From the NCBI GenBank assembly GCA_030018275.1, contig JASEGB010000002.1, positions 59,638 through 123,637 of the forward strand: a DNA stretch of 64,000 bases. The letters run 5' to 3'. Below the pieces are notes generated by a model, which was given only the letters and a program-made list of their open reading frames with translations, was not told the DNA's origin and did no database searches. A program made the position numbers and the translations under genes. Positions 2,320 to 26,679 of the stretch are shown piece after piece; position 1 is the first letter of the stretch; every line of letters starts with the position of its first letter. The DNA is from Actinomycetota bacterium (lineage in GTDB: Bacteria > Actinomycetota > Aquicultoria > Subteraquimicrobiales > Subteraquimicrobiaceae).

Positions 2320-3273
2320 CTATACCCATTTTCTACTCAATACTCTCCCTACAGCTTCCACGATATCCTGGCTGGTGAGTCCATAATGCTTGAGAAGCTC
2401 TGCAGCCGAACCGGATTGACCGAACTCATCCCTGATGCCTACCCTAGCTATAGGAGTGGGCGTTGTCTCCGCGAGCAATTCAGCTATGGCGCTCCCAAGT
2501 CCCCCTATTATGGTATGTTCCTCGGCAGTAACCACAGCTTTCGTCTTCTCAACGGATTCTAAAATGCCTTCGGCATCCAAGGGCTTTATGGTGGGTACGT
2601 TGATGACCTCGACGCTTATTCCCTTCTCCCCTAGCTTCTCCGCGGCTTCGAGCGCTTCATTGACCATAATGCCGATGGCGAAAATCGTAACGTCCGACCC
2701 TTTCCTCAATTTTAAAATCTCACCGAATCTAAACCTGTAATTCACATCGAATATAATGGGAGCGGGTTCGCGACCCAGCCTGATGAATATTGGACCTTCG
2801 ATGTGATAGGCTGCCTTTACTGCCTCCCGCGCCTCAAAGTAATCCGCCGGTACAACCACCTTCATGTTTGGAACAGCCCGCATGACTGCGATATCTTCGA
2901 CGGATTGGTGAGAAGAACCATCCGCCCCCACGGAAATCCCAGCATGAGTTGGACAGAGTTTAACATTAAGATTTGAGTAGGCAATAGTGTTTCTCACTTG
3001 CTCAAAAGCACGCCCGGTGGCAAAGATGGCAAAAGATCCCGTGTAACAAACCTTACCACAGGTGGAGATTCCAGCTGCAATATCCATCATGTTTTGCTCG
3101 GCGATCCCACATTCGATAAACCGCTCCGGATAAGCATTGGCGAACTTAATGCTGGTCGTGGATTTAGCTAGATCTGCATCGAGGACAACAACATTTGGAT
3201 ATTTTGCTCCAAGTTCCAGCAGAGCATCCCCATATGCCTCTCTAGTCGCCCTCTTCTCTCTTAAATGGTTCAC
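2320..3273 (-). CDS. Transketolase, C-terminal subunit
   Basis: 317 aa. Pyrimidine-binding and C-terminal domains of a split transketolase. GTG start. Paired with the N-terminal subunit upstream. Confidence 0.9.
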   Translation of the reverse strand: MNHLREKRATREAYGDALLELGAKYPNVVVLDADLAKSTTSIKFANAYPERFIECGIAEQNMMDIAAGISTCGKVCYTGSFAIFATGRAFEQVRNTIAYSNLNVKLCPTHAGISVGADGSSHQSVEDIAVMRAVPNMKVVVPADYFEAREAVKAAYHIEGPIFIRLGREPAPIIFDVNYRFRFGEILKLRKGSDVTIFAIGIMVNEALEAAEKLGEKGISVEVINVPTIKPLDAEGILESVEKTKAVVTAEEHTIIGGLGSAIAELLAETTPTPIARVGIRDEFGQSGSAAELLKHYGLTSQDIVEAVGRVLSRKWV

Positions 3274-3297
3274 CGTTCACCGCTCACAGTTTACAGT
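3267..3297. repeat. Tandem heptamer array (GTTCACC family), copy A. It overlaps the tkt C-subunit start codon.
   Basis: Plus strand reads ggttcacc gttcacc gctcaca gtttaca. Minus-strand reading is CTGTGAG CGGTGAA CGGTGAA CC, which includes GTG start. Confidence 0.7.
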
Positions 3298-3308
3298 AAA
3301 ATGTACAT

Positions 3309-3353
3309 GGGCATAAATCCTCGAATATATTTTTCTGAAGGGGGTGGGCTAAT
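3309..3353. promoter_or_regulatory. Conserved roughly 45-bp leader motif, copy 1, upstream of the tkt C-subunit gene
   Basis: gcataaatcctcgaatatatttttctgaagggggtgggctaa is near-identical to the motif at 5088-5132 (cataaatcccgaatattcttccgaaggaggtgggctaa). Confidence 0.5.
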
Positions 3354-3411
3354 TCTAAAATTATGATCACCCACAGTAATTATGTCGAGATTAAGCTCAT
3401 ATTTTTGTAGT

Positions 3412-4251
3412 TTAACCCCTTTTTTCCAGCTCTTTAAGCGCTTTCTCCATTTGCTCCTTACTAGGAGCCTTACCATGCCACTCCACCCGGCCTTCCATGA
3501 AGGAGACTCCCTTCCCCTTGAGGGTATGAGCGATAATTATGCAGGGCTTCCCCTTGGTTTTATCGGCCTCAATGAGGGTATCCACGATATCCAAAACATT
3601 GTGCCCATTCACTTCGAGCACACGCCATCCAAAGGCAGACCACTTATCGGCGATGGGTTGAATCTCCATGACATCGCTCACCGGTCCATCTATTTGTAAG
3701 CCGTTGTAATCGAGGATGGCGACCAAGTTGTCCAATTTATAATGGGAAGCGAACATTGCCGTCTCCCAAACTTCACCCTCCTGGCTTTCCCCATCGCCTA
3801 TAAGGACATAGACATGGTAATCTCTCGCATCCATCTTCCCAGCTAAAGCCATTCCAGTTGCAGCCGCAAATCCGTGAGCCAAAGCTCCGGTGGATATCTC
3901 CACACCCAATACCTTTTTCATATCCGGATGTCCCTGTAAAATGCTTCCCAACCTTCTTAAGGTCCATAAAATATCGACGGGAAAGTAATCACATTCGGCT
4001 AAAGTGGCGTAAAGGAGGGGACATGCATGACCTTTACTCAATACAAATCTATCGCGGTCAGGCCATTTGGGATCTTCCGGACGGTGTCGCATGTGATGAA
4101 AATAGAGAGTGGCAACAATATCCGCTGCAGAGAGAGAACCTCCTGGATGACCGGAGCCTGCTTCTCCAATCATCCTTATAATATTCCATCGAAGAGTACG
4201 TGCCTTTTCTTCTAAAAAAGTTCTTAGTTTTTCGCGATCCAAAAGGTTCAC
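3412..4251 (-). CDS. Transketolase, N-terminal subunit (TPP-binding)
   Basis: 279 aa. Carries the thiamine-diphosphate binding motif region. GDGESQEGEVWE is characteristic of the transketolase N-terminal section. Confidence 0.9.
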   Translation of the reverse strand: MNLLDREKLRTFLEEKARTLRWNIIRMIGEAGSGHPGGSLSAADIVATLYFHHMRHRPEDPKWPDRDRFVLSKGHACPLLYATLAECDYFPVDILWTLRRLGSILQGHPDMKKVLGVEISTGALAHGFAAATGMALAGKMDARDYHVYVLIGDGESQEGEVWETAMFASHYKLDNLVAILDYNGLQIDGPVSDVMEIQPIADKWSAFGWRVLEVNGHNVLDIVDTLIEADKTKGKPCIIIAHTLKGKGVSFMEGRVEWHGKAPSKEQMEKALKELEKRG

Positions 4252-4324
4252 CTAATATCCAACAATATCGCTGCGCTCCTTATTTATATTCGCAGCTTCT
4301 CTCCATATACCTCCATTAAAATCC

Positions 4325-5068
4325 TCAAGTCCTTACCGCAAATTTTATTTCTTTCTTCCTTTCCACAAAATTTAAGACCTTATCTAACGAGCAATTTAAT
4401 ATATTCTCCTTAAGATACCCCGCTTCAAGGGCGAGTTTAATTGCTTCCCCAAACTCGCCAACTCCCTGGGCTAAATGAGCATCGCTGCTGATAATGATGT
4501 CCAAATTATGCCTTCGTGCAACCTTGGCAATCTCCAGATCGTATGCGTAACTACCCACTCGACTGGTACTCGTCAAAAATGAACTATTATTGATTTCAAA
4601 TAAAGCATCATGGGCTGCGGCTGCAGCTACCACCTCTTCGGCATCGATAGGAAAATTTGGATTTCCCGGGTGAACGATCACATCTACAAAGGGGTTTCTG
4701 ATTGCACCCAATAGTGCTCTCGTATTCTCCCTCGTAGTTTTCCCCTCATAACCGCAGCGAGGGTGGAAGCCGACGTGAACTATATCCAGAGTCTTGAGGA
4801 GATCCTGGGGCAAATCAAGATTCCCTCCCGAATCCACGATATTGGCTTCGACCCCCTTCAAAATCCGTACTCCATACAACTCCCTGGGTACTACCCTTAA
4901 ATTCCAGAAATGGTAAGCATGTGCTCCCCCGGGCAAACCAGGGCCATGATCCGTAATGGCAATGAGCTTCAGACCTTTAAGGGCTGCAGCCTTCGCTATC
5001 TCATCGATGGTGCTATATGCATGACCACTGGCAACCGTATGTATATGAAGATCTGCTACTAATTTCAT
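4325..5068 (-). CDS. PHP-domain phosphoesterase (YcdX-like)
   Basis: 247 aa. N-terminal HIHT motif and multiple conserved His/Asp residues of the PHP fold. Confidence 0.75.
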   Translation of the reverse strand: MKLVADLHIHTVASGHAYSTIDEIAKAAALKGLKLIAITDHGPGLPGGAHAYHFWNLRVVPRELYGVRILKGVEANIVDSGGNLDLPQDLLKTLDIVHVGFHPRCGYEGKTTRENTRALLGAIRNPFVDVIVHPGNPNFPIDAEEVVAAAAAHDALFEINNSSFLTSTSRVGSYAYDLEIAKVARRHNLDIIISSDAHLAQGVGEFGEAIKLALEAGYLKENILNCSLDKVLNFVERKKEIKFAVRT

Positions 5069-5087
5069 TCATTCCACCTTGTGCATG

Positions 5088-5132
5088 GTTCATAAATCCC
5101 GAATATTCTTCCGAAGGAGGTGGGCTAAGGAG
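5088..5132. promoter_or_regulatory. Conserved roughly 45-bp leader motif, copy 2, upstream of the PHP gene
   Basis: See 3309-3353. It lies 20 to 60 nt upstream of the PHP ATG on the minus strand. Confidence 0.5.
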
Positions 5133-5148
5133 GCTCTAGGCTTCTTTC

Positions 5149-6247
5149 TTATCCCCTTCTTCGTCTATGGAAAGCGATGATGAAATCATCGAGGTTTCCG
5201 TCCAAAACCTCTTGAACATTACCAGTTTCAAGATCAGTTCGATGATCCTTCACCAGACTATAGGGATGTAGGATATATGACCTGATCTGACTTCCCCAGG
5301 CAATCTCCTTCCTCTCACCTCGAAGTTCCTCTATCTTCTTTCGCCTTTCCTCCTGCATCCTCTCATATAGCCTGGCTCGCAAAATCTTCATCGCCGTTTC
5401 TTTGTTTTGAAATTGAGAACGTTCACTCTGACATTGGGCTACTATACCGCTGGGAAGATGGGTGATTCGGACGGCGGAATCCGTCACATTAACATATTGA
5501 CCACCGGGTCCCGTAGCCCTGTAGGTTTCCACCTTGAGATCCTTGGGATCGATGCTTACCTCTATCTTTTCATCTATCAATGGGATAACATCCACGGAAG
5601 CAAAGGAGGTATGTCTTCTCCTTTGAAAATCGTAGGGGGAAATTCTGACCAATCTATGGATACCCTTTTCAGCCTTAAGGAGTCCGTAGGCATATTTTCC
5701 ATGTACGGTGAAGGTGGCATCCTTTATCCCAGCTTCTTCCCCCGGAGAGACCTCATTTACTTCCACCTTAAATCCCTTGCGCTCGGACCAGCGAAGATAC
5801 GTCCTCAAAAGTATTTCCGCCCAATCCTGGGACTCGATACCACCAGCACCGGGATGGATATTGACTATGGCATCCAGTGAATCAAATTTCTCCCTAAACC
5901 AACTGCGAATTTCAAGATCCTCGACCTTTTGCTTAAGTTTCCTAAGGGATTTACCCACATCCTCGCTCAGAGCTATGTCACCTTCGGATATAGCAAGCTC
6001 ATTTAAAAGACAGAGGTCGTTATATTCTTCATTCATTCTTTCCCAGGAGGACACATCATCCTTCAAATCGCTTAAGCTCGACATGATCCTCTGTGCCCTT
6101 CGAGTATCATCCCAAAATCCCGGTTTAGCCGCCTCCGATTCGAGCTTTTTAATTCTCTCTCTCTTCCCCTCAATGTCAAAAATAATCCCCGATTTTTTCT
6201 ATTCTTTCACCAAGCCTTTGGAGTTCGTCAGAGTAGTCAATAAACAT
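5149..6247 (-). CDS. prfB: Peptide chain release factor 2, made by a programmed +1 ribosomal frameshift
   Basis: The main ORF has SPF and GGQ motifs. The upstream short frame MFIDYSDELQRLGERIEKIGDYF ends at an in-frame TGA in the context GGGGAT TAT TTT TGA C. After the shift it reads DIEGKRERIKKLESEAAKPGFWDD. This is the classic RF2 autoregulatory site. Confidence 0.9.
6170..6185 (-). other. prfB +1 frameshift site, TTT TGA C, with an upstream SD-like GGGGAT
   Basis: Read directly in the minus-strand sequence. The UGA lies at about 6177-6179. Confidence 0.85.
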
Positions 6248-6303
6248 TGCAATCCCACCTCTTTCACACAAATTTAGGCTTCCTAATTGACTAGACACTT
6301 AGT

Positions 6304-9069: not shown

Positions 9070-9149
9070 GTATATGCACCTTCAAATTTAGATTTTGTCG
9101 CATTTTACCACTATTTTAACATGGTCTAGCTCCATTCTCACTTTCCCAT

Positions 9150-9620
9150 ACTCAAACCAAAATCTTAACTCTCACAAAATCAATAACCTGTTCCGCAACT
9201 TTAATTGCTTCTTTGGCATCGTCTTCAGTGAATTCCTCAATTGCATACTCCCCAAAGGGACCGCTCCCTTTAACATCCATTTAGCTGCTTTCAAATCATA
9301 TTCTGATTGACATAACCAAACAGTAACATCTGGTCTATTTTCGCTCATAGATTACTTTTCCTTGACTCATTATCTCCTCAAGAAAAGGATTATTGTACTT
9401 GTGCATTTTCTTTAATTCTTGAGGAGTATAAACAAGTGGCTCAAATGGAACAATTATAATCGCACAATTTTAGTACCTCGCCAATACGATCGATTAACCG
9501 CTTTTTCCTAGTTTTTGATTATGAGCATATCTATATCACTATTTTCACTAAATTCTCCACGAGCCGCGGACCGAATAGAATGATCTTCTCTGGTTTATAC
9601 TTTTTGATTACTTGCTCGGC
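9150..9620 (-). pseudogene. Decayed HEPN/MNT toxin-antitoxin pair. The nucleotidyltransferase and HEPN fragments are spread over several frames.
   Basis: Minus-strand frames give GEFSENSDIDMLIIKN (MNT GS..DxD motif), then a stop. TPQELKKMHKYNNPFLEEIMSQGKVIYERK is the MNT C-terminus. MSENRPDVTVWLCQSEYDLKAAKWMLKGAVP followed by EYAIEEFTEDDAKEAIKVAEQVIDFVRVKIL is HEPN-like, frameshifted, with the R-x4-6-H core missing. Confidence 0.45.
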
Positions 9621-11304: not shown

Positions 11305-12595
11305 GGCTCATCTGCCCTTTCCTTTTTTCACCCTCTCGAGGGTTAGCATTCAAGCCCAAACCCATCATTAATGCATTCACCAAAATTTTATCCCATTGAG
11401 ACCCACTGTATGTGGTGAGTTCCTCTATGACCGTTTCTTGATCCAGAGCTGGACGATAAGGACGAGCTGATGTCATAGCGTCATAGCTGTCAGCCACGGC
11501 TAAAATTCGAGCCATGAGGGGGATCATCTCCCCCTTAGTACCATCGACATAACCGGAACCATCCACCCGCTCATGATGATGAAAAATGGCGGGCACAACC
11601 TCCTTTAAGAATTCTATCTCTCTAATTATGGCCACGCCTATCTCCGGATGTTCCTCGACTTTCCTATATTCGGCGTGGGTAAGCTTCCCAGGCTTACTAA
11701 GAATTCTTCGAGTAATTCCTATTTTTCCCACATCATGGAGGAGAGCTGCGTACTTAAGCGTTTCGATTTTTTCCTCAGGCAAATGTAACTGCCTCGCGAT
11801 CTTCTCCGCATATTCCGCGACCCGTTCCGAATGGCCCCTGGTATATGGATCCTTGGCTTCAACCGCAGCGACCAGGGATTTCACCGTGCCCATGTAAGCT
11901 CCACGCAATTCCATATAAACTTGGAAGGTCTGCCTGGCGATGAGGAGGGGTGCTATGAGTAAGACGATTCCCGCTGGTCCAGCTTTGACATAGATTTGGG
12001 CCAAAATGACTCCTAACGGTGCGAGTGCAAAATAATTGGGAATGGCCCATTTGCAGTCAAAAAGCCAAATATTAACGGGGGAAATATCTTCCAAAAATCC
12101 GATCCCCATCGATACTAAAGAACTATTAATGAGAAAATAAGCAGCTGCACAAAGAATAAACGGTATAAGAATCCAAGGGAAATCAGAATAGCTAAGACCC
12201 TTGACCATTAAAATTGGTCCATGTGCATAAAGATAAACCAAACCCGCTATCCCCGTATCCAATATGGCCAGACTCCCATTGGCTAACCATCTATAAAAAG
12301 AGGATCTTTCCTTTATATCCCTCCAAACCACGGCGGTGGATAAGGCTGCCAGTGCAGCGGAAGCTGGTCCTAAAAGAAGAATGGCGGCATATAGGAGGGC
12401 AAAGCTAACGGAGACCGCTCCCACCTTGGGAAGATCTATTCCAAAGGACTCAGCGAGCCAAATTAATAAACCAAAGAGGAGAATATGCTGCCAAGATAGC
12501 ATAGGAGTGGCAGACACCAAGTAAAAGAGGAGAGCCGAGGCACACACGGTTAAAAATATCGAATATGCCTTAAAACTAATGGGTACTTTTTTCAA
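11288..12595 (-). CDS. Membrane-anchored HD-GYP domain protein (putative c-di-GMP phosphodiesterase)
   Basis: 435 aa. Carries LLHDVGKIG and HHHERVDGSGYVDG. The N-terminal polytopic domain is paralogous to the downstream gene. Confidence 0.82.
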   Translation of the reverse strand: MKKVPISFKAYSIFLTVCASALLFYLVSATPMLSWQHILLFGLLIWLAESFGIDLPKVGAVSVSFALLYAAILLLGPASAALAALSTAVVWRDIKERSSFYRWLANGSLAILDTGIAGLVYLYAHGPILMVKGLSYSDFPWILIPFILCAAAYFLINSSLVSMGIGFLEDISPVNIWLFDCKWAIPNYFALAPLGVILAQIYVKAGPAGIVLLIAPLLIARQTFQVYMELRGAYMGTVKSLVAAVEAKDPYTRGHSERVAEYAEKIARQLHLPEEKIETLKYAALLHDVGKIGITRRILSKPGKLTHAEYRKVEEHPEIGVAIIREIEFLKEVVPAIFHHHERVDGSGYVDGTKGEMIPLMARILAVADSYDAMTSARPYRPALDQETVIEELTTYSGSQWDKILVNALMMGLGLNANPREGEKRKGQMSLVGYI

Positions 12596-12715
12596 CCTTC
12601 AACCTCGTTTCAAGCTATCCCTTAATCCTCAACCTTGAACCCTATCAAATTCTAAATCTTGCACAAGTCAGAACTAAAGTTGCAATGATTGTTGGTTCTA
12701 AAAACCGCTTAACCT

Positions 12716-15292: not shown

Positions 15293-15350
15293 TTTCGTCC
15301 CCCATGAAGCTCATAGCTCTGTAGCTCAGAAGCTCGAAACTGATTTTTTT

Positions 15351-15378
15351 CTGTGAACGGTGAACCGTGAACTGATTT
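15351..15378. repeat. Tandem heptamer array, copy B. It lies immediately 3' of the aldolase stop.
   Basis: ctgtgaa cggtgaa ccgtgaa. The same 21-mer occurs at 21400-21420. Confidence 0.75.
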
Positions 15379-15944
15379 TATTTTTCGAGCATTTCGATGA
15401 GATAATTTATCCTCGCCACTTCTTCGACCAACTCGGCGATGTTCACCGCTTCATTCAAATCTTCACCCACAGTCACGACGCCATGCATCTCCAACAGGGC
15501 AGCCTTACCCAACCTCAGGTGGTCTCTCACAGCTTCAGCGAGCTCCCTTGTGCCATAGACGAAAGGAGGAACAACCGGTACCCTCCCCAAAATGTACTCA
15601 CCTTCAGGATTCACGGGTCGCAAACTCTTCTTCAAATAGGCCAGGGCTGAGGCATAAGGAGAATGAGTGTGCACAATAGCATTGACATCCGGACGCGCTT
15701 TATATATCTCTATGTGCACCCACTTCTCAGTGGAGGGTTCCTCCTCCCCTTCCAGCTTTTCTCCCTCGGAATCTAAAACCACTAAATCTCTCTCGGATAG
15801 TTTGCCCAGGCAAGCACCGGTAGAGCTGATTAAAATCCTTCCCTCATCCACGCGGCAGCTTATATTCCCTACCCGCCCAATCACCAAGCCCTTTTCATAG
15901 ACCTCTTTTGCAGCTTGTATTATCTCTTCTTTATAGCCTTCCAT
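15378..15944 (-). CDS. Class II aldolase/adducin family protein. It is probably methylthioribulose-1-phosphate dehydratase or an L-fuculose-P aldolase-like enzyme.
   Basis: 188 aa. The His-rich metal site HTHSPYA is present. The location between mtnA and ahcY suggests MtnB. Confidence 0.72.
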   Translation of the reverse strand: MEGYKEEIIQAAKEVYEKGLVIGRVGNISCRVDEGRILISSTGACLGKLSERDLVVLDSEGEKLEGEEEPSTEKWVHIEIYKARPDVNAIVHTHSPYASALAYLKKSLRPVNPEGEYILGRVPVVPPFVYGTRELAEAVRDHLRLGKAALLEMHGVVTVGEDLNEAVNIAELVEEVARINYLIEMLEK

Positions 15945-15980
15945 TTTTTCCTCCCATTATAAAGCTCGGGAGCTCAGAGG

Positions 15981-17237: not shown

Positions 17238-17275
17238 TTGAAATCCCCCCTTATCTACGTTCTAGGTTCAAGCCT

Positions 17276-18109
17276 TCAACCTTCAACGACTTTTCGGACA
17301 ATGCCTTTAATGAGTTTTCTGAGATTTACCTCAGTTTTCTGAGCTTGAACCAGAACCTCTTCGTGAGTCACTTTCTTTTTATCCGATACCACATCGGTGA
17401 TGCAAGAAATTCCCAAAACCCTAAGTCCAGCATGGTTGGCCACTATTGCTTCAGGCACCGTCGACATCCCCACGGCATTTGCTCCTATCCTAGCCAGAAA
17501 TTCAATTTCTGCGGGAGTTTCATAACTCGGTCCTGGAACTCCCACATAGACACCCTTGTGTAACCTGATTCCCTCCTCCCGAGCAACCTTTTGAGCGATT
17601 TCAATGAGCTTCCGATCATAGGCCTGGGACATATCAAGGAAACGAGGTCCGAGTTCTGGGTCATTTAATCCGATAAGGGGATTGGTTCCCATAAGGTTGA
17701 TGTGATCGGTGATGATCATAAAATCCCTGACATCGAAATCGGGGTTAAGTCCTCCAGCCGCATTGCTGAGGATGAGTATCTCGACCCCCAATTCTTTAAA
17801 CACCCTGATGGGAAGGGTTATTCCTTTCATGGTGTATCCTTCATAATAATGAGGACGCCCCTGCATGACGATGACTTCTTTCCCCTCAAATTTACCGGAG
17901 ACTAAATTTCCCGAATGACCTGGGGTCATTGGTATAGGGAAATGAGGGATATCTCGATAAGGAATAACCTTTTTATCCTTAATTTCATCAACCAATCCAC
18001 CCAGTCCTGAACCCAAAACTATGCCAATCAATGGTTTTACTTCTATTCTCTCCCGGACAAAGTGTGTTGACTCTCTAACCTGGTTTTTGAATTGCTCTAC
18101 GGGATCCAA
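17276..18109 (-). CDS. Purine nucleoside phosphorylase / 5'-methylthioadenosine phosphorylase (PNP/MTAP family)
   Basis: 277 aa. It has the PNP family 2 fold motifs. The context favours an MTA phosphorylase role. Confidence 0.82.
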   Translation of the reverse strand: MDPVEQFKNQVRESTHFVRERIEVKPLIGIVLGSGLGGLVDEIKDKKVIPYRDIPHFPIPMTPGHSGNLVSGKFEGKEVIVMQGRPHYYEGYTMKGITLPIRVFKELGVEILILSNAAGGLNPDFDVRDFMIITDHINLMGTNPLIGLNDPELGPRFLDMSQAYDRKLIEIAQKVAREEGIRLHKGVYVGVPGPSYETPAEIEFLARIGANAVGMSTVPEAIVANHAGLRVLGISCITDVVSDKKKVTHEEVLVQAQKTEVNLRKLIKGIVRKVVEG

Positions 18110-19626: not shown

Positions 19627-19667
19627 CCCGCCTGGAGCGAAGCCTCCCTTTGGGACCGGACGGGCAG
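19627..19667. repeat. 40-bp repeat, copy 1 (intergenic)
   Basis: cccgcctggagcgaagcctccctttgggaccggacgggcagg. Copy 2 at 19965-20005 differs at about 2 positions. Confidence 0.7.
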
Positions 19668-19680
19668 GTAAACCCCGACG

Positions 19681-21228
19681 CTACGATCTACAGCGAGCCT
19701 CGTCCAGAATCTCTTGTCCCACTTTAAGGAGAGTAGAAACTCTTTGGGGACTGCTGGCTTCGGCGTAAATGCGAACGACCGCCTCCGTTCCAGATGGTCT
19801 GATCAGGAGCCAACTCTCATCGGCAAGGAGAAACTTGCACCCATCCATATTGTCGATGGTAACCACCTTAACTCCAGCCAATTCGCTGGGATTGAAAGTC
19901 TTTAAATAGTTAAGGAGATTTTCCCTTACAGTTGATGCCGTTTCCACACCATGTCTGCCGACAGGCCCGCCTGGAGCGAAGCCTCCCTTTGTGACCGGAC
20001 GGGCAGGCAGGTCCACCCGGTCATAATAAAAATAACCTATTCTCTTCATTAAATCATCCACCAATTCCTTGAGGGTCTTCCGGTGAGTGATCATGATTTC
20101 CACGAGAAGCAACCCAATTAAGATTCCATCCCTCTCCGGGATGTAATTCTTTATCCCAATGCCTCCGCTTTCCTCGCCCCCGATTAAAACATCGCGGGTC
20201 AAAATATGCTCGCATATGTATTTGAATCCAATGGGAGTTACATGTAGGGGCAGATTATACTTCCGCGATAAGATATCAATCATTTGAGTGGTGGAAACGG
20301 TCTTGACCACTTCGCCGCGCCATTTGCGCTGGTTAACCAGGTGCTCTAAAAGAAGTGCAAATATCTGGTGAGAGTCGATGAATGCTCCTGAAGGATCAAT
20401 GGCTCCCGTTCGATCCGCATCTCCATCCATCGCCAGACCTACATCGAAACCTCTCCTTTTGACCTCGCGACGAAGATCCTCGAGGTTCTCCGAGATGGGC
20501 TCGGGATTTATCCCCCCAAAGGTAGGATTTATCCCCTTATGGATTTCTACCACCTCGCAACCAAGCCTGGAAAGAGCTTCACTTAAGTATCCCTGCCCCG
20601 CTCCGTACATGGGATCGACAACCACCTTGAGTTGGAAGTTAGGAGTTGGGAGTTGGGGGAATAGGTTTTTGTCTAGGAGGGTGAGGATGTTGGAGAGGTA
20701 TGCTTCCTTGGGATCGAAAAAGCGCAGGCGATCTTCCTGGGTTGCTTCCTCGCCCCAGGCCCCTTTTCGGGGCAGAGAAATCTTGAGCGGTTTCTTACCC
20801 CGAGCTGAATTCCTTCGATAGCACTGCTCTATTTTCCCGGTGATCTCCGGAGTTGCGGAACCGCCGAAAGAAGCTTTAAACTTCAAACCATTGTACTGAG
20901 GAGGGTTATGGCTCGCCGTAATGAGAATGGCTCCATCCGCCCGTTTGTCCACAACGGCAAATGAGACCACGGGAGCGGGAGCAAAACTCTCAGTGAGTAA
21001 AACATCGAAGTCATTTGCCGCGGCAACGAGAGCCGCTTCCAAGGCAAACCTGTCCGAAAGAAACCTGGTATCATAACTGACAATTAATCTTGGCCGAGGG
21101 CTGATAGCTGAAGGCTGAAAGCTGATTTTAATGTAGTCGCATATGGCTTGAGAGACCCATCTCACGTTCTCGAAGGTGAAATCGTCCGCTATTATTCCTC
21201 TCCAGCCATCAGTGCCAAATCTAATCAT
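19681..21228 (-). CDS. Phosphomannomutase/phosphoglucomutase (alpha-D-phosphohexomutase)
   Basis: 515 aa. Active-site TASHNP, a metal-binding DGDADR-like loop and the phosphate-binding RPSGTE motif are present. It contains the second copy of the 40-bp repeat in-frame (PARPVTKGGFAPGGPVGRHG). Confidence 0.9.
   Translation of the reverse strand: MIRFGTDGWRGIIADDFTFENVRWVSQAICDYIKISFQPSAISPRPRLIVSYDTRFLSDRFALEAALVAAANDFDVLLTESFAPAPVVSFAVVDKRADGAILITASHNPPQYNGLKFKASFGGSATPEITGKIEQCYRRNSARGKKPLKISLPRKGAWGEEATQEDRLRFFDPKEAYLSNILTLLDKNLFPQLPTPNFQLKVVVDPMYGAGQGYLSEALSRLGCEVVEIHKGINPTFGGINPEPISENLEDLRREVKRRGFDVGLAMDGDADRTGAIDPSGAFIDSHQIFALLLEHLVNQRKWRGEVVKTVSTTQMIDILSRKYNLPLHVTPIGFKYICEHILTRDVLIGGEESGGIGIKNYIPERDGILIGLLLVEIMITHRKTLKELVDDLMKRIGYFYYDRVDLPARPVTKGGFAPGGPVGRHGVETASTVRENLLNYLKTFNPSELAGVKVVTIDNMDGCKFLLADESWLLIRPSGTEAVVRIYAEASSPQRVSTLLKVGQEILDEARCRS
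19965..20005. repeat. 40-bp repeat, copy 2, inside the phosphomannomutase CDS
   Basis: cccgcctggagcgaagcctccctttgtgaccggacgggcagg. Confidence 0.7.
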
Positions 21229-21241
21229 CTTCGTTCACCAT

Positions 21242-21262
21242 GGAATCGTTGACCGTTCACCG
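21242..21262. repeat. Heptamer pair (gttgacc gttcacc) just upstream of the phosphomannomutase start
   Basis: Minus strand reads GGTGAACGGTCAACG..GGTGAACGAAG ATG. Confidence 0.6.
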
Positions 21263-21392
21263 AAATATCCTTTAATGAATTCTTAAGAGCACTAATCATC
21301 ATAGCAAGTCTATTGCACTCTTCATAGAAATGTTTGTAATCTTCGGTGGTAATAAAAGTGAATTCCATTTCTCCTCAAGCTTTTATGATCTT

Positions 21393-21426
21393 CACTGTGA
21401 ACTGTGAACGGTGAACCGTGAATGAA
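21393..21426. repeat. Tandem heptamer array, copy C. It lies immediately 3' of the gmd stop.
   Basis: ctgtgaa ctgtgaa cggtgaa ccgtgaa. Confidence 0.75.
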
Positions 21427-21430: not shown

Positions 21431-23404
21431 TTAAACTCTTTTGCGCCAATAGTTTAGCAAGTCTTCCAGGGTCTTTTCGAAGGGGATTTCCGGTTCCCAG
21501 CCCGTGGCTTTCTTGAACTTAGTGGCATCTCCCGCCAAGATGGGAACATCCGAGGGACGCATGCGAGCGGGGTCTTGCCTTATCTCCACATCCACATCGC
21601 TCAATTTGAGCAGCATGTTGAGCATATCTGCAATCTTAACCGCCTTCCCCGATGCGATATTATACACCTCTCCAGGCTCACATTTTTCCAGCGCCAGCCA
21701 ATAAGCTCTTACCACATCTCGGACATCCGAGAAATCGCGTTTCGCTTCCAGATTTCCCACTTCAATTACGGGCTCTTTTAAGCCCTTTTCAATCTCCGCA
21801 ATCTGTTTAGCGAAGTTCGACGCCACAAAAACTTCTCCACGCCTTGGTCCCGTGTTATGAGCTAAAAGATTACCCACGCCCGCTTGAAACATTCCATCTT
21901 CTGTAGAAAAATCCCACACCTCCTCAGAATAATCTATTGGATTAAGAGATTTTATAATTCCATCTGGCTTTTGAAGATGTTTGCCCCAATTTTTATGAGC
22001 TTTTATATCTGAATTTAAATTTATAGAAATATATCCTTTCCTTTTATCTTCGAAATTAATATTAATTTCCTGTCCAGTAGTCTCTTTTATTAAATAACAC
22101 AATCCCGCGGCCAATATCCTTGACTTAGTCTTGAAATTTTTGAATTTATATTCACCATGTCCTTTCTTTAATCCATCTCCTTCATTATAGCCTTCAAGGA
22201 AAGCAAGTTTTGCTTCCTTTTGAGCGTTTAAGATACATTGGGGAACTTTTTTATTTCCATCAGAAGCATATACCTGTGGATATAACCACTTAGCAAATTT
22301 TCCAGGATTTCTTACAGATAATCTTAAACTACTCTTATTTTCTTGATAAAAACTATCTTTTCCAAAATGTTTAAGGAGAATTCTTTTTGTTTTATCTAAA
22401 AGAGTTTTATTAGTGTTATCAACTCTAACTTTCCCTACAGTTATGCATCCTTCTGCAACAAAAAATCCAAAAAACCAAGCTACCTCTTCATTCACATGCA
22501 TTATATTACTCGATGGATAATTAACAATAGCAACTTTATCCCCTATTTGAAGGTTTACAACTTCTTCCGGTTTCAAATCCTTACCAATAATAGAATGATT
22601 ATCTGTAACTTCTAATAGTCCCTTTTTAGTTAAAATTCTAATTAATTTATTATCGCGAATGGGATGGCAACTAATTTCTTTAAGTTTAACCCAATGATTA
22701 TTTGACCACACTGATAAATTGTATCTCCGTAAATTCCAAACTTTGACATCCCCTATAAACTTGCCTGATTTATATCCTCCGATTTTATATTTATTTCTCA
22801 TCTCATTAATGTATTTGATATCTATCAAACCTGAGGAATCGTCTCTAATCATTACTGGTGTCCACTTAGATACTGAGTGATTGAAAGCACGGGTTCGCAC
22901 GATGTGCATGCCATAGCTTCGATGATATTGGTATCCCAATAAATCCTGAGCTACCTTGCTCACCCCATAGGGACTCAGAGGCCTTAAGGGATTGGTCTCC
23001 CTTATGGGAATCTCATTTTCATAGACGAGACCATACTCCTCGCTGCTTCCAGCGAGCTGAACTCGAGGGTTAAGCTTCAGCTCGCGGATGGCTTCGAAGA
23101 GATTAACCTGACCAATGATATTTGTCACTAGGGTCTCAGCGGGTGCATGCCAGGAACTTGGTATGTACGATTGTGCTGCTAAATGAAAAATGTAATCGGG
23201 TTTGCTTTGCTCTAAAGCTTTAATTACCGAGGAGGCATCTCGAAGATCACAATCAATTAGCTTAATCTTGCTCCTGATGTGATCGATATTTTCCGTTCGA
23301 CTCCTCCACCTGATGGTCCCGAAAACTTCAGCGCCCTTTCCCAGGCAGTATTCGGCGAGATGACTTCCCACAAACCCCGTTATACCTGTGATGAGTACCT
23401 TCAC
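21431..23404 (-). CDS. gmd: GDP-mannose 4,6-dehydratase interrupted in-frame by a 341-aa LAGLIDADG intein
   Basis: The N-extein carries the SDR Rossmann fold GITGFVGSHL ... YGVSK ... RAFNH. The C-extein reads TGPRRGEVFV ... to the end. The exteins total about 316 aa, typical for Gmd. The canonical Gmd motif FNHESPRRGETF is split between H176 and T518. Confidence 0.9.
   Translation of the reverse strand: MKVLITGITGFVGSHLAEYCLGKGAEVFGTIRWRSRTENIDHIRSKIKLIDCDLRDASSVIKALEQSKPDYIFHLAAQSYIPSSWHAPAETLVTNIIGQVNLFEAIRELKLNPRVQLAGSSEEYGLVYENEIPIRETNPLRPLSPYGVSKVAQDLLGYQYHRSYGMHIVRTRAFNHSVSKWTPVMIRDDSSGLIDIKYINEMRNKYKIGGYKSGKFIGDVKVWNLRRYNLSVWSNNHWVKLKEISCHPIRDNKLIRILTKKGLLEVTDNHSIIGKDLKPEEVVNLQIGDKVAIVNYPSSNIMHVNEEVAWFFGFFVAEGCITVGKVRVDNTNKTLLDKTKRILLKHFGKDSFYQENKSSLRLSVRNPGKFAKWLYPQVYASDGNKKVPQCILNAQKEAKLAFLEGYNEGDGLKKGHGEYKFKNFKTKSRILAAGLCYLIKETTGQEININFEDKRKGYISINLNSDIKAHKNWGKHLQKPDGIIKSLNPIDYSEEVWDFSTEDGMFQAGVGNLLAHNTGPRRGEVFVASNFAKQIAEIEKGLKEPVIEVGNLEAKRDFSDVRDVVRAYWLALEKCEPGEVYNIASGKAVKIADMLNMLLKLSDVDVEIRQDPARMRPSDVPILAGDATKFKKATGWEPEIPFEKTLEDLLNYWRKRV
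21854..22876 (-). mobile_element. Intein (class 1) with a LAGLIDADG homing-endonuclease domain, inside gmd
   Basis: Ser1 follows the ...FNH extein. Block B is LEVTDNH. The two dodecapeptide motifs are FFGFFVAEGCI and FLEGYNEGDG. The C-terminal blocks are VWDFSTEDGMFQAGVGNLLAHN. The +1 extein residue is Thr. The region is visibly more AT-rich than the flanking gmd sequence. Confidence 0.85.
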
Positions 23405-23467
23405 CTTTCAACCTCCCAAATTTAAAATTTCATAAAAAATTACAGTTTTGGGTTGTTCAATCCGAAT

Positions 23468-23489
23468 AACAGGTCTAAAGACCTGTTTC
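23468..23489. repeat. Hairpin repeat aacaggtc taaa gacctgtt, family member 1
   Basis: Perfect 8-bp inverted repeat. The same core occurs at 31826-31845, 53369-53391 and 53470-53526. Confidence 0.7.
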
Positions 23490-23565
23490 TACTATTTTAA
23501 ATGAATGTAAAAATTGGATTTAAGGATTTATTATGCCTGGTAAATAAAGGTGTCGAGGTCTGACC

Positions 23566-24678: not shown

Positions 24679-24738
24679 TTATAATCCCCTCCAATTTGTG
24701 ATTCGCTTTTTGTCGGGGATAAACCCCGACACTACTTA

Positions 24739-25608
24739 CTACTTGCGCCGTCTTAAAAAATTGATGCAAACAAGAAGGCATCCTCTTAAGCACAAACCCA
24801 AGGCAACCAAGAGTTTCAGATATCTCTTCCAGCTATTCCCATACCGCTTTGAATAGAACCGATACATGCTCTTTTGAAACTCGATTATCATTGGCATACT
24901 CTGCCTCTTGCTACTCTCGGCAATATAATGAACCACCCTGGCATCAGGTGTGAAATAAACCCTCCAACCTTTCTTCCACATTCGGTAGCACAGATCCAAA
25001 TCTTCAACGTACATGAAGTAACCTTCATCAAAAAATCCCACATCCTCCAGGGCTTTTCTGCGAAGACATATAGCTGCCCCCGAAACCCAATCCACGACTC
25101 GCTCGGATTTATGATCCCAATCAGCCATCTTGTATTTTCTGGAGATGGGATTGGATGGAAAAATAACGCCAAAAAAGGCATGCACCATAGCTTCTCCAAA
25201 GGAGGGAAAATTCCTGCAAGAGTACTGGATCGAACCATTGGGGTTTAAGAGCAGAGGTCCCACCACCCCCACATCCTCATGGTTTTCCATGAATTCCACC
25301 AGCCTGTCCGACGCCTTAGGGAAAACTCGGGTATCGCTATTAAGCAGGAATATATATTTTCCTCGACTCGCCTCAATGGCTTGATTGCATGCTTTGGCGT
25401 ACCCAATATTGATGGGGTTCTGGATCAACCGGACTTCGGGGAATTCCTTTTTAACCATCTCCACGCTGCCATCGGTGGAATTATTGTCCACGACGATTAC
25501 TTCGAAAGGACACCCTTTCTCGAAAATCGAGGTCAGACAATCCTTAAGTAAATCTTTGGTATTCCAACTGATTACGGCAATGCTCAAATCCAAAGTTTCC
25601 ACTTTCAC
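24739..25608 (-). CDS. Glycosyltransferase family 2
   Basis: 289 aa. Motifs VVDNNSTDGS, a DxD and a C-terminal ED. Confidence 0.85.
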   Translation of the reverse strand: MKVETLDLSIAVISWNTKDLLKDCLTSIFEKGCPFEVIVVDNNSTDGSVEMVKKEFPEVRLIQNPINIGYAKACNQAIEASRGKYIFLLNSDTRVFPKASDRLVEFMENHEDVGVVGPLLLNPNGSIQYSCRNFPSFGEAMVHAFFGVIFPSNPISRKYKMADWDHKSERVVDWVSGAAICLRRKALEDVGFFDEGYFMYVEDLDLCYRMWKKGWRVYFTPDARVVHYIAESSKRQSMPMIIEFQKSMYRFYSKRYGNSWKRYLKLLVALGLCLRGCLLVCINFLRRRK

Positions 25609-25618
25609 GACAAATAAT

Positions 25619-26608
25619 TCACCACAAATGTCTTCTTATCCAAGCCTTATAATCGAATTTCTGAAACCACTTCTCTATCTCCACCTGGCTCACCTTTCTA
25701 TTCTTTTGGATAACTCTCCTTTTCGCAAAAGTTCTGGGCAACTCCCTTAAAATATCAATCCAACCCAATAACGCCGCTGGACATCTGAAAAGGAGTGCTC
25801 CCGTCTTTAAGGTATCCGTGATCAGAAAATGATGGAGATTCCTCAAAATGCTGGCGAAGGAATCGTTCTTGAGGATCATCAGATATCTATTTTTGTAATT
25901 GTGGATTTCCACCAATTTGGTTCTCCTTACGGCAATTCCCCCACGATAATGATAAGCCACAGCAGAGGGTGTATAAATACATTTCCATCCATGCATCTGT
26001 GCCCGCCAATTGAGATCCACATCCTCTAAAAAGGCAAAGAAGGCTTCATCGAAGTACTCCCCACCTGCCTTAACATCCTCCAGCATTCCCCTCTTGTACA
26101 GGGAAGCCGCGGCACAGGAGCCGAAAATGTATTCCACTTGGTCGTATTGACCCTCATCAATTTCTCCATCTCCTCTATCGATGACCAATCGATTCTCGAA
26201 CATGGTGTGACCCACCGAGTCTATAACCTTTGTTCGACCTTCATCGTTGAACCTCAATAACTTGCCCGAAACTGAACCAATTTTTTCATCCAAAGAAGCG
26301 GCTTTGACCATCTCACTTATATAGGTGGGGGTCATCACGACATCTATATTCAAAGGTATCACATAAAGACCCTTGGAGGTAGCAATCCCTTGGTTGATAG
26401 CCATTGAAAACCCCTTATTTTCCTCGTTCTCTATGAGGATTACGGAGGGATAGTTTCTCTTTATGATTTCCTGAGACCCATCGGTTGAGCTATTATCGAT
26501 GACGATTACCTCTAGTGCCGGATAAGTCTGACCTAGCACCGAATCCAGGCAATCCTTTACAAACCTTTTCCCGTTCCAATTCACAATAATAACCGAGACT
26601 AGATCCAT
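25619..26608 (-). CDS. Glycosyltransferase family 2
   Basis: 329 aa. Motifs VIVIDNSSTDGS and DVD. Confidence 0.85.
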   Translation of the reverse strand: MDLVSVIIVNWNGKRFVKDCLDSVLGQTYPALEVIVIDNSSTDGSQEIIKRNYPSVILIENEENKGFSMAINQGIATSKGLYVIPLNIDVVMTPTYISEMVKAASLDEKIGSVSGKLLRFNDEGRTKVIDSVGHTMFENRLVIDRGDGEIDEGQYDQVEYIFGSCAAASLYKRGMLEDVKAGGEYFDEAFFAFLEDVDLNWRAQMHGWKCIYTPSAVAYHYRGGIAVRRTKLVEIHNYKNRYLMILKNDSFASILRNLHHFLITDTLKTGALLFRCPAALLGWIDILRELPRTFAKRRVIQKNRKVSQVEIEKWFQKFDYKAWIRRHLW

Positions 26609-26618
26609 TTTTCATCCC

Positions 26619-26679
26619 AGTTCATCGTTCACAGTTCACCGTATAATTCGTTCACCGTTCACCGTGGACCGTTCACCGC
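26619..26679. repeat. Tandem heptamer array, copy D. At about 8 units it is the longest copy, and it lies upstream of the GT2 start.
   Basis: gttcaca gttcacc gtataattc gttcacc gttcacc gtggacc gttcacc. Confidence 0.75.

Follow-up and report, generated by a model that had tools for sequence, protein, structure and literature searches.

Heptanucleotide arrays at gene boundaries in an Actinomycetota genome: a repeat family with a putative remnant of an intervening-sequence-like cassette

The GTGAACN/GTTCACN arrays of the window (the whole 64-kb stretch of DNA analysed) are intergenic seven-base tandem repeats, a kind common in bacteria. On balance, we favour their interpretation as an STRR-like heptanucleotide family that comprises the inverted arms of a decayed, selfish four-helix-bundle (4HB) cassette of the 23S rRNA intervening-sequence (IVS) type, together with leftover solo arms. 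The arms are likely to act as an RNA or DNA hairpin and, incidentally, as a source of GGTGA SD sequences and start codons. It is unlikely that the arrays are regulator binding sites.

Heptamer arrays in the window

Tandem GTGAACN units were located at five intergenic sites, 3267-3297, 15351-15378, 21242-21262, 21393-21426 and 26619-26679, where an earlier note on this DNA had placed them. With at most one mismatch, GTGAACNGTGAAC was matched 11 times versus 0.11 times expected from dinucleotide shuffles of the window (largest shuffle value 2). All 11 matches were within 3268-26662, and none was found in the other 37 kb of the window. Period-7 arrays were detected by TRF at 3268-3291, 15353-15372, 21394-21422 and 26620-26678. 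The hexamer recurring most at lag 7 in the window was GTGAAC (7 times versus at most 2 for any other), and, with multiples of 3 set aside, lag 7 was enriched relative to the other lags (60 versus 16-25). The identical 21-mer described earlier was recovered as CTGTGAACGGTGAACCGTGAA at both 15351-15371 and 21402-21422, with 0 expected. The block GGTGAACGGTCNACG is common to the right arm at 21233-21262 and to 26660-26678, and the 3267-3294 array with its flank is 79% identical to 26644-26676 over 33 nt. The arrays form one sequence family with the order of variable positions in common. Long ORFs contain none of them; intergenic DNA makes up approximately 18% of the window.

The same arrays recurred in assemblies made independently (Logan SRR23186779, GCA_030019535.1, a JGI metagenome, GCA_002339355.1 and GCA_022735775.1). 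An assembly artefact as array source was ruled out by this recurrence.

The arrays lie in a cluster of sugar-nucleotide, glycosyltransferase and methionine-salvage genes. The spacers are intergenic, as had been noted, but the surrounding operons are not only classic housekeeping ones. A CSD gene is also present in the window.

Table 1. Positions of heptamer arrays and of the bracketed ORF in the window.
Feature	Position	Strand	Context
Four-unit array GTAAACT GTGAGCG GTGAACG GTGAACC (gene strand)	3267..3294	-	Between halves of split transketolase
Solo left-arm-type array	15353..15373	+	Gene (-) strand GTTCACG GTTCACC GTTCACA
Left arm of putative cassette, (A/G)TTCACN x4 on gene strand	21393..21426	+	8 nt past GDP-mannose dehydratase stop
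47-aa ORF MEFTFITTEDYKHFYEECNRLAMMISALKNSLKDISVNGQRFHGERR, then stop	21225..21368	-	Own GAGGAG SD
Right arm of putative cassette, GTGAACG GTCAACG (21262-21249), then solo GGTGAACG (21240-21233)	21233..21262	-	
Longest array, GTGAACN 4 + 3 units (gene strand) with AATTATAC between	26620..26679	-	
Second tandem family, GAGCTTCT GAGCTACA GAGCTAT GAGCTTC	15300..15335	-	TRF 15308-15335
Third heptamer family, GGTTGAA on gene strand	17267..17307	-	Spans PNP gene stop

Viewed on the gene strand, GTTCACN arrays lie 4-8 nt past a stop codon, and GTGAACN arrays overlap a start codon or sit 0-14 nt ahead of it. Orientation tracked position at five of five window sites and in every relative examined. The earlier argument that mixed orientation speaks against a purely mRNA-level signal was wrong, since GTTCACN strictly follows stops and GTGAACN strictly precedes starts. 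Orientation tied to stop and start in this manner is the appearance of two inverted-repeat arms on one transcript.

The C-terminal subunit of the split transketolase is predicted to start at the GTG of the last unit at 3267-3294 (3273-3271), the sole start upstream of its conserved ATREAYG. The gene previously labelled tkt does encode a transketolase, but the C-terminal half of a split one. The 15353-15373 array opens 4-5 nt past the TAA of a class II aldolase gene (15378-15944), approximately 60 nt upstream of an mtnA-like gene, and was also found in the relatives L122 and L123. The longest array stops 11 nt ahead of the ATG (26608) of a family-2 glycosyltransferase gene. The PGM/PMM gene is led by GGTGAACGAAG-ATG, a start confirmed by alignment with relatives; GGTGA is its sole SD-like sequence, and the solo GGTGAACG stops 4 nt short of this ATG (21228). 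The proposal that the unit doubles as SD and start (GTG for tkt, ATG for PGM/PMM) stands as a reading of the sequence.

Of the further heptamer families, the second shares the spacer of the 15353-15373 array, immediately ahead of the mtnA-like gene, and recurs as two units at approximately 15950-15975, upstream of the aldolase gene. The third is followed by inverted CTTGAAC CTAGAAC, and a second copy (12591-12623) overlaps the TTG start of an HD-domain gene.

Candidate cassette and its 47-aa ORF

At 21225-21426, arrays of opposite orientation bracket a 47-aa ORF. The order on the gene strand is upstream stop, (GTTCACN)x4, SD, 47-aa ORF, (GTGAACN)x2 plus one unit, and downstream start. The ORF reads through the right arm in its last codons and ends in a TGA that overlaps the PGM start codon, ATG. 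The only NCBIfam match was TIGR02436 (E=0.025), at model positions 79-109 of 109, the C-terminal end. Our own 4HB profile, which was built from 82 ORFs of PF05635 loci, matched at positions 88-119 with E=0.26 among 19,338 ORFs; this equates to approximately 1e-5 for the 47-aa ORF as a single pre-specified ORF. The 4HB match covers a 30-residue fragment and is under the curated cut-offs. No PF05635 match was obtained in a Pfam search at E<=10, and the ORF was an orphan among 1.84 billion representatives. We read it as the putative C-terminal-helix remnant of a four-helix-bundle gene (PF05635/TIGR02436, S23p/Avd-like). Pairing of the window arms was weak, with a fold no better than that of shuffled sequence (z=-0.36).

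In the relative L124, a 45-aa ORF homologous to the window remnant was found in a different spacer, bracketed by (GGTTCGA)n, a unit related to the third heptamer family of the window, and (TTGAACC)n; this remnant cassette has a stable long stem (z=-2.7). The GMD-PGM spacer, which holds the remnant in the window, contains other small genes instead in L124 and L206-L208.

Turnover among relatives

Whether related genomes have the arrays at orthologous spacers had been raised earlier; at some spacers they do (L122, L123, L124, L206-L208), with varying unit number. The left arm at 21393-21426 has 4 units in the window versus 3 in the close strain L123. At the orthologue of the 26620-26679 site, upstream of the glycosyltransferase gene, 7 units were counted in L123, 3 in L206-L208 and 2-3 in L124. 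Unit counts thus change between strains and species with flanking genes constant, and from orthologous spacers of some relatives the arrays are missing, again without change in flanking genes. Other heptamers fill equivalent positions. In L206-L208, mtnA is preceded by GGTGAACGAAATTG in the same start-proximal arrangement.

PF05635 genes and GTGAACN arrays in other genomes

Full-length PF05635 genes in three unrelated genomes (Acidimicrobiaceae, Bacteroidales and an unclassified MAG) are bracketed likewise, in the order stop, GTTCACN/GTACACN array, gene, GTGAACN/GTGTACN array, next gene. For a wider sample, 80 metagenomic PF05635 loci were chosen without regard to repeats, and an array was defined as at least 3 heptamer units. 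Arrays were present upstream in 28 loci and downstream in 26; 38 loci had at least one array beside the gene, and 16 of these had arrays on both sides. In 16 of the 16 two-sided loci, the downstream array was the reverse complement of the upstream one (permutation null for such pairs: mean 1.6, maximum 6). Heptamer arrays had a density of 1.76 per kb near the PF05635 gene versus 0.10 per kb further off, with a small intergenic control of 2 arrays in 6.3 kb. Periods 5, 6 and 8-11 were nearly absent near PF05635 genes (at most 0.25 per kb). The same bracketing was seen in 5 of 14 PF05635 loci on viral contigs.

PF05635 cassettes lie between the stop and the start of co-directional genes; no target-site duplication and no mobility enzyme were seen in them. 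Their heptamers were highly diverse (34 sequences in 38 loci) and differed even between loci with 84%-identical proteins. That the heptamer is almost never the same across loci argues against a sequence-specific reader. Arm duplexes were no more stable on the sense than on the antisense strand (15 of 28, p=0.27), so that arm pairing gives no support to an RNA-level role.

The GTGAACN unit itself forms arrays in Gemmatimonadota, Bacteroidota, Acidobacteriota, Cyanobacteria, Chloroflexota, an archaeon and viral contigs. A 4HB gene was near such arrays in 4 matches at 120 genome loci (181 arrays in all) and in none of 92 viral loci. The distribution of heptamer arrays is therefore much wider than that of 4HB cassettes, and the solo arrays of the window, three in number, may have arisen without such a cassette; as most arrays elsewhere are without a nearby 4HB gene, a cassette origin of the solo arrays stays conjectural. 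About one third of the GTGAACN arrays elsewhere are short-loop hairpins with the opposite arm order (GTGAAC then GTTCAC), and these are outside what the cassette model explains.

Proposed origin and alternative explanations

The favoured interpretation is a small selfish intergenic cassette, which would be kin to 23S rRNA intervening sequences with an S23p/PF05635 (Avd-like) gene. The arrays at 3267-3294, 15353-15373 and 26620-26679 would be solo arms belonging to this family, which either remained after internal deletion or were distributed locally via recombination or duplication, and would retain the arm-specific site, the left type past a stop and the right type before a start. In the transcript or in single-stranded DNA, the two arms could pair into a long stem, which RNase III may process, on the model of the 23S rRNA intervening sequence. 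Array size would shift by slippage. Since right arms end at the next gene, GGTGA and GTG may serve the downstream cistron as SD and start, and this reuse would let the element sit in an operon with little harm. The earlier suggestion of a small mobile repeat comes close to the evidence, given that the arrays are one family, that one pair brackets a putative PF05635 remnant and that relatives have a homologous remnant cassette, or other small genes, in different spacers of this operon.

If the sense GTGAACN were the functional form, the arrays could be bound by a protein that recognises single-stranded RNA (cold-shock, S1 or CsrA-like) and controls translation of the downstream cistron. Three of the five arrays are sense and end 0-14 nt from a start, in place of a canonical GGAGG SD, and GGTGAACGAAATTG is arranged in the same way before mtnA in L206-L208. 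MacGregor reports TAACTGA repeats as equally start-proximal and cites cold-shock proteins as binding approximately 7 nt per monomer (PMC4679880), and the window has a CSD gene. This explanation is nevertheless improbable: the other two arrays are antisense and past stop codons, one orthologous site varies from 2 to 7 units, relatives lack arrays in spacers with the same flanking genes, and PF05635 loci nearly always differ in their heptamer. Independent replication slippage at each site, giving ordinary simple-sequence repeats with neither element ancestry nor function, would fit the copy-number differences between strains, the several unrelated heptamer families together in the window and the intergenic heptamer excess of many bacteria, a proposed product of slippage (PMC4692102, PMC6344855). 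We consider it unlikely, as it leaves unexplained the identical 21-mer with the same variable-base order at two sites, the shared flanks and the stop/start-tied orientation at five of five sites, the inverted pair around the 4HB remnant and the 16 of 16 reverse-complementary arms at PF05635 loci.

The earlier note had preferred double-stranded DNA sites for a regulator or nucleoid protein. Transcription factors reading heptameric direct repeats have a precedent of the SARP/OmpR type in Actinomycetota (PMC5930380), and the arrays are scattered within one gene neighbourhood. The window units, however, are contiguous with a period of 7 that is not the helical repeat, they lie between stop and start inside co-directional gene strings, and their number is not conserved. 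Promoter-like matches were not enriched (23 versus 21.3 expected), and a lineage-specific regulator would not account for a unit spread over many phyla and viral contigs. A DNA-level binding array is thus unsupported and very improbable.

Comparison with known systems

In a REPtron, inverted REP sequences flank the gene of a RAYT transposase. By analogy only, the present elements resemble it in having a gene between inverted short repeats that also occur gene-less and as hairpins in intergenic DNA; the repeat is often beside the gene (38 of 80 loci) and the gene rarely beside the repeat (approximately 2-3%). Unlike REP, which is a fixed palindrome, the PF05635 repeat varies in sequence and is arrayed in tandem, and no mobilisation in trans is evident. 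We know of no nuclease or transposase activity of PF05635 four-helix bundles. SARP sites consist of heptamers approximately 11 bp apart (about one helical turn) on one helix face, overlapping the -35 box at promoters. With the SARP operators of Streptomyces (PMC5930380), the window shares heptamer direct repeats in an actinobacterial genome. Its arrays differ in being contiguous, with period 7, and in their position at stop/start boundaries within operons.

Classical STRR units are CCCCAGT, TTGGTCA and CAACAGT. The GTGAACN unit differs from these, one window pair can be tied to a putative PF05635 remnant, and the MAG has a low GC content and belongs to a deep-branching lineage of Actinomycetota, not to the cyanobacteria. 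No HIP1 repeat was found here. The STRR heptanucleotides of heterocystous cyanobacteria and the general intergenic heptamer excess of bacteria (Mrazek 2007, as cited in PMC4692102; SPADE survey, PMC6344855) are similar in that tandem seven-base units, in approximately 3 to tens of copies, are intergenic, dispersed and variable among close relatives, and at times form inverted pairs (GGGAATC in Xanthomonas, PMC4692102).

TAACTGA direct repeats were reported from marine Beggiatoaceae, Cyanobacteria and Bacteroidetes, and for those of Beggiatoaceae translational control by an RNA-binding protein was proposed (MacGregor 2015, PMC4679880). They are likewise intergenic heptamer direct repeats of 2-6 units, patchy across phyla, with other heptamers in the same spacers, mostly forward and a few nt from a start codon, displacing the canonical SD. 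Compared with this description, the window has another unit, two of five arrays reversed past stops and one inverted pair around an ORF remnant. The searched sections of that paper nowhere refer to S23p, to four-helix-bundle proteins or to intervening sequences.

The 23S rRNA IVS with an S23p/four-helix-bundle ORF is known from Coxiella burnetii and was reported in Leptospira, Xanthomonas, Brucella and Haemophilus too; in Coxiella, RNase III cuts a 28-bp terminal stem, and tandem heptamers that vary between strains lie directly upstream of the S23p ORF (PMC4990558). The window element differs in its location between operon protein genes and not in helix 25 or 45 of 23S rRNA, in arms that are wholly heptamer arrays and in an ORF reduced to a 47-aa remnant; RNase III processing would apply to it by analogy. 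Like the 23S IVS, it is a small insert with terminal inverted repeats that would form a stem and a PF05635-type ORF in the loop, the heptamers adjoin the ORF in strain-variable copies, and the ORF decays while the RNA/DNA framework stays.

Heptamer arrays in the spacers of a co-directional gene string

The five tandem arrays of GTGAACN/GTTCACN described in the earlier note were all found in place, and the observation is real (Table). They occupy four spacers with 2-4 units each (4+3 upstream of the glycosyltransferase gene) and are confined to the first 27 kb of the window, outside long ORFs save for start-codon overlap. GTGAAC was by far the top hexamer of the window for recurrence at lag 7, and the count at lag 7 was 60 vs 16-25 at other lags that are not multiples of three. 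The window has 11 matches to GTGAACNGTGAAC when up to one mismatch is tolerated; shuffles that preserve dinucleotides predict 0.11. The 21-mer said to be shared by two sites, CTGTGAACGGTGAACCGTGAA, has exactly two exact copies, at 15351 and 21402. Since the same sequence is present in independent assemblies, the arrays are not assembly artefacts. Like STRR-type (short tandemly repeated repetitive) sequences, they comprise at least about three head-to-tail units at dispersed spacer sites and are polymorphic in copy number between close relatives. A known RNA family was ruled out as their identity, because the window contains no Rfam match at gathering thresholds and no tRNA; rRNA is absent as well.

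Nearly all genes of the window are on the minus strand, and the spacers that contain the arrays belong to a co-directional string. It runs from a nucleotidyltransferase, two family-2 glycosyltransferases and a second nucleotidyltransferase through GDP-mannose dehydratase (with a LAGLIDADG intein), PGM/PMM, PGI, PNP and adenosylhomocysteinase to a class II aldolase and an MtnA-like isomerase; a split transketolase follows farther along. The adenosylhomocysteinase is identical or near-identical to proteins of MAGs named 'Actinomycetota bacterium', and its relatives at 73-79% identity are named Subteraquimicrobiales, Oleimmundimicrobium and Aquicultor. The HIP1 repeat is absent from the window. 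By this absence and by the adenosylhomocysteinase, which assigns the window to an Actinomycetota MAG lineage, a cyanobacterial origin and a classical STRR were ruled out.

The GDP-mannose 4,6-dehydratase has 657 aa and a LAGLIDADG homing-endonuclease domain mid-protein, and therefore contains an intein; its orthologues in the related species L124 and the further relatives L206-L208 have 316 aa and are without it. Small selfish-gene cargo and fragments (DUF559-like, nucleotidyltransferase/HEPN, GIY-YIG, DUF4258 with a 77-aa partner, zinc-ribbon ORF) crowd the spacers of this lineage, and the cargo at one spacer varies among relatives.

Coordinates of arrays, cassette and other features (window positions unless a relative is named)
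Feature	Coordinates	Remarks
GTGAACN array	3267-3294	ahead of transketolase C-subunit start; Tandem Repeats Finder, period 7, 3268-3291
GTTCACN array	15353-15373	after aldolase stop; Tandem Repeats Finder, period 7, 15353-15372
Cassette	21225-21426	left arm, 47-aa ORF, right arm
GTGAACN array, right arm	21233-21262	ahead of PGM/PMM start
GTTCACN array, left arm	21393-21426	after dehydratase stop; Tandem Repeats Finder, period 7, 21394-21422
GTGAACN array	26620-26679	ahead of glycosyltransferase start; Tandem Repeats Finder, period 7, 26620-26678
GDP-mannose 4,6-dehydratase gene	21431-23404 (-)
GGTTGAA tandem family	12591-12623, 17267-17307	gene boundaries
GAGCTNN tandem family	15300-15335, 15950-15975	gene boundaries
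PGM-internal heptamer runs	20629-20657 (-), 21100-21125	first run (CCAACTC)x4
PGM 42-nt insertion and its spacer hairpin copy	19966-20007 and 19627-19668
PGM second insertion	~20752-20772	21 nt
Other dispersed repeats	26816-26915; 23467-23492, 31822-31847, 53468-53493; 31760-34200, 36700-37100, ~53400
~45-nt motif	~3303-3353, ~5085-5128 (-)	two spacers
Small spacer cargo	1877-2319, 9070-9579; L123 17965-18093; L124 4746-4961; L206 4113-4442, 5591-6135
Weak promoter matches near arrays	26615-26586, 26797-26770

Orientation of the arrays and the dehydratase-PGM cassette

On the coding strand, two of the five arrays read GTTCACN and come just after a stop codon, 4-5 nt past the aldolase TAA and 8 nt past the dehydratase TAA; the other three are GTGAACN arrays ahead of starts. 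The predicted GTG start of the transketolase C-subunit gene lies in the last GTGAACN unit, the PGM start is preceded by GGTGAACGAAG-ATG, and 11 nt separate the ATG of the glycosyltransferase gene from the end of the array upstream of it. GGTGA is complementary to UCACC of the conserved 16S rRNA 3' end. This orientation rule was kept in every relative examined. Mixed orientation had been taken as an argument against an mRNA-level role; this argument fell away, as orientation tracks the position of stops and starts, and such position-dependent orientation reads as the two arms of an inverted repeat. For annotation, repeat units at such spacers may furnish start codons and SD sequences, and a short ORF flanked by arrays may be what is left of a gene.

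In the dehydratase-PGM spacer the coding strand reads (A/G)TTCACN x4, a GAGGAG SD, a 47-codon ORF, GTGAACG GTCAACG, GGTGAACG and the PGM start. The 47-aa ORF (MEFTFITTEDYKHFYEECNRLAMMISALKNSLKD followed by 13 more residues) was searched against 18,950 NCBIfam models and matched only TIGR02436, 'four helix bundle protein' (4HB; S23p/Avd-like, PF05635), at E=0.025. The match covers model positions 79-109 of 109, the extreme C-terminus, and its score of 14.8 bits lies below the cut-off of 24, as expected for a match to a fragment. In our own 4HB profile, built from 82 ORFs in 80 metagenomic PF05635 loci, the ORF aligned at positions 88-119 with E=0.26 among 19,338 ORFs, which amounts to ~1e-5 for this single pre-specified ORF. 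A Pfam scan of the small spacer ORFs gave no PF05635 match, just DUF559 and HEPN fragments in relatives. When a word-indexed collection was queried with the 47-aa ORF, the self-match alone was returned, and an exhaustive HMMER search of 1.84 billion representatives gave the ORF itself and chance matches to 'ALKNNLKDIIKSG' repeats of long repeat proteins. A conserved mini-protein family was thereby ruled out and the ORF reads as an orphan remnant; judged by its sequence, it fits the C-terminal remnant of a 4HB gene and not an intact member.

A second element of this kind lies in a different spacer of L124, whose adenosylhomocysteinase is 94% identical to that of the window. It consists of (GGTTCGA)n, a 45-aa ORF ending LEDYLRLINFSERILSKLSGLINSLNP, and (TTGAACC)n. 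The two ORFs share ~32% identity over 28 positions (manual alignment), and the 45-aa ORF has a weak alignment to the 4HB profile, at the end that the window ORF matches. The cassette arms in the window are inverted heptamer arrays whose predicted fold pairs ~12 bp and is weak (z=-0.36); the arms of the L124 element fold as a long stem (z=-2.7), and intact cassettes elsewhere form long stems of -30 to -140 kcal/mol. A cassette origin of 21225-21426 is well supported.

PF05635 genes between inverted period-7 arrays

The genome collection was scanned for (GTGAACN)x3, which gave at least 120 loci in many phyla; the scan describes taxonomic spread and not per-genome counts. Among the 120 matches listed, a full-length PF05635 gene adjoins the array in 3 (Pfam E=1e-27 to 1e-40), and 3/3 share the layout of the window: stop codon, GTTCACN/GTACACN array, PF05635 gene, GTGAACN/GTGTACN array, next gene.

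To remove selection on arrays, 80 metagenomic loci (L126-L205) were retrieved by 4HB protein alignment alone. Period-7 arrays of at least 3 units within ~200 bp of the PF05635 gene were found upstream in 28/80, downstream in 26/80, on either side in 38/80 and on both sides in 16/80. Their density was 1.76/kb by the PF05635 gene vs 0.10/kb farther off and 0.32/kb in a small intergenic-only control; periods 5, 6 and 8-11 were nearly absent. The downstream consensus was the reverse complement of the upstream one (at most one mismatch) in all 16 two-array loci; 2000 permutations averaged 1.6 such loci and never exceeded 6. The cassettes directly abut co-directional genes on both sides, the stop of one gene before them and the start of the next after them. 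Arrays were present at 5/14 PF05635 loci from viral contigs, and the sole locus with both arms was inverted.

Heptamers were almost never repeated between loci (34 sequences in 38 loci). When co-variation of protein and heptamer was examined, heptamers differed even at 84% protein identity, which makes a sequence-specific code between protein and repeat unlikely. PF05635 cassettes conserve the heptamer period and inverted symmetry, not sequence. In L126-L205, the array upstream of the 4HB gene had more G than C in 16/16 two-array loci, YAG occurred in ~20/34 distinct heptamers (manual count) vs ~22% expected, and units of the TAACTGA and GGGGAAT types known from the literature were also seen among the arms.

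The arrays themselves are a far wider phenomenon than 4HB cassettes, as 4HB genes are rarely found near them: in the 120 matches listed, with 181 arrays (at least 3 units), four 4HB matches lay within 800 bp of an array, and none of the 92 viral loci had a 4HB gene near a GTGAACN array. About one third of the arrays in these 120 matches have an inverted partner; most of these pairs have their arms the other way round from the cassette (GTGAAC first, GTTCAC second) and enclose a loop of 13-110 nt that lacks an ORF. In the same matches, short-loop GTGAAC-GTTCAC hairpins were especially common in Gemmatimonadales, and GTGAACN arrays often shared a spacer with different heptamers (AGTGACA, GGAATCG, GTTAGGA, TAACTGA).

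Turnover between relatives and other repeats

As a comparison proposed in the earlier note, orthologous spacers of related genomes were inspected; arrays are present in some of them, with varying unit number. The left arm has 4 units in the window vs 3 in the close strain L123, and the array upstream of the glycosyltransferase gene has 7 in both, 3 in L206-L208 and 2-3 in L124. The content of the dehydratase-PGM spacer also differs: the window and L123 have the 4HB remnant there, L206-L208 have a DUF4258 gene and a 77-aa gene, and L124 has a zinc-ribbon ORF. Between the adenosylhomocysteinase and aldolase genes the spacer measures 12-36 bp except in L124, where it is the site of that genome's remnant cassette. 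Upstream of mtnA, GGTGAACGAAATTG in L206 stands in place of GGGGGACGAAATTG in the window. At equivalent boundaries other heptamer families are found, and a stop (TGA) or start (TTG) codon sometimes falls within their unit. Among relatives, inverted pairs of the GGTTGAA/GGTTCGA family occur in the PNP-AdoHcyase spacer of L206 and in the remnant cassette of L124.

Heptamer runs inside the PGM gene were ruled out as insertions, since the encoded residues are conserved in relatives. The (CCAACTC)x4 run encodes PQLPTPNFQL, a peptide kept in relatives, and is therefore coding sequence and not a recent insertion. Two in-frame insertions in the same gene are missing from relatives and look like tiny hairpin elements inserted in coding sequence: one of 42 nt, which adds ARPVTKGGFAPGGP and copies, at 98%, a GC-rich hairpin of the adjacent downstream spacer, and a palindromic one adding PRKGAWG. 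Further dispersed repeats of the window include three GC-rich hairpins of the GTAGG-CGGGGG...CCCCCG-CTA type upstream of the glycosyltransferase gene, TAACAGGTCTAAAGACCTGTT hairpins, and clusters of GTCATTGCGAG-type repeats. A ~45-nt motif, TTAGCCCACCYCCTTCRGAA...GGATTTATG, lies upstream of the transketolase C-subunit gene and of gene 4325-5068 and could be a promoter or leader element.

Discussion

The window is best read as holding a decayed IVS-like (23S rRNA intervening sequence) 4HB cassette in an operon spacer, well supported for 21225-21426, together with solo arms of the same heptamer family. The three solo arrays are probably relics of cassette arms, because they share unit order, blocks and flanks and lie at arm-appropriate positions. 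By analogy with the 23S rRNA IVS, the cassette arms would pair in the transcript, and the right arm would give GGTGA and GTG to the downstream cistron. Sense and antisense arm-duplex energies, compared as a test for RNA-level selection, showed no difference, the duplexes being equally stable in both strands.

Binding sites for a regulator, as the earlier note had proposed, are an unlikely explanation. In SARP sites the centres of successive repeats lie ~11 bp, roughly one turn of the helix, apart. These SARP/OmpR operators are the nearest model among known direct-repeat regulators and do not fit units that are contiguous with period 7. Sigma-70-type consensus sites, the only promoter type searched, were not in excess in the window (23 vs 21.3 expected), and no promoter or terminator signals coincide with the arrays, save weak promoter matches near the glycosyltransferase array. 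The alternative of a small mobile repeat was broadly right. A further reading, a widespread two-part selfish system in which the PF05635 protein recognises or propagates heptamer-periodic hairpins of any sequence, strikes us as improbable at present. The prokaryote-wide heptamer excess would then largely be gene-less progeny, the 23S rRNA IVS a special case and the window a decayed master copy with solo arms; RAYT/REP may offer a parallel for such a pairing of gene and arrays.

The window ties one heptamer family to a gene remnant, and the locus itself is of moderate interest. Higher interest attaches to the general association: about half of PF05635 genes adjoin heptamer arrays (38/80), inverted where on both sides (16/80). 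In the literature searched, no paper was found tying PF05635 genes in general to such arrays, which is not proof of novelty. Testable hypotheses are that operon transcripts are processed by RNase III at these stems, that the pentameric four-helix-bundle protein binds heptamer-periodic nucleic acid, and that IVS-like cassettes exist in mRNA operons.

We class the window element as kin of STRR-type repeats and S23p intervening sequences. From classical cyanobacterial STRRs it differs in its unit, GTGAACN, and its host, an Actinomycetota MAG. That heptamer repeats are in excess in the intergenic DNA of bacteria is recognised and unexplained (PMC4692102, PMC6344855); of the periodic repeats in such DNA of prokaryotes, tandem heptamers were reported to be the most abundant, with 'no clear clue' to function (PMC6344855). 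TAACTGA repeats (MacGregor 2015, PMC4679880) are start-proximal; this forward position, with no canonical SD, is matched by 3/5 window arrays, and the other two differ in being reversed and after stops. The 23S rRNA IVS is inserted in helix 25 or 45, its stem is cut by RNase III, and its S23p-adjacent heptamers vary among strains (PMC4990558). The window element differs in lying between the GDP-mannose dehydratase and PGM/PMM genes, and resembles the IVS in the heptamers next to the ORF, which are tandem and strain-variable as in the Coxiella IVS (PMC4990558); the 4HB ORF family and the stem would be further likenesses.
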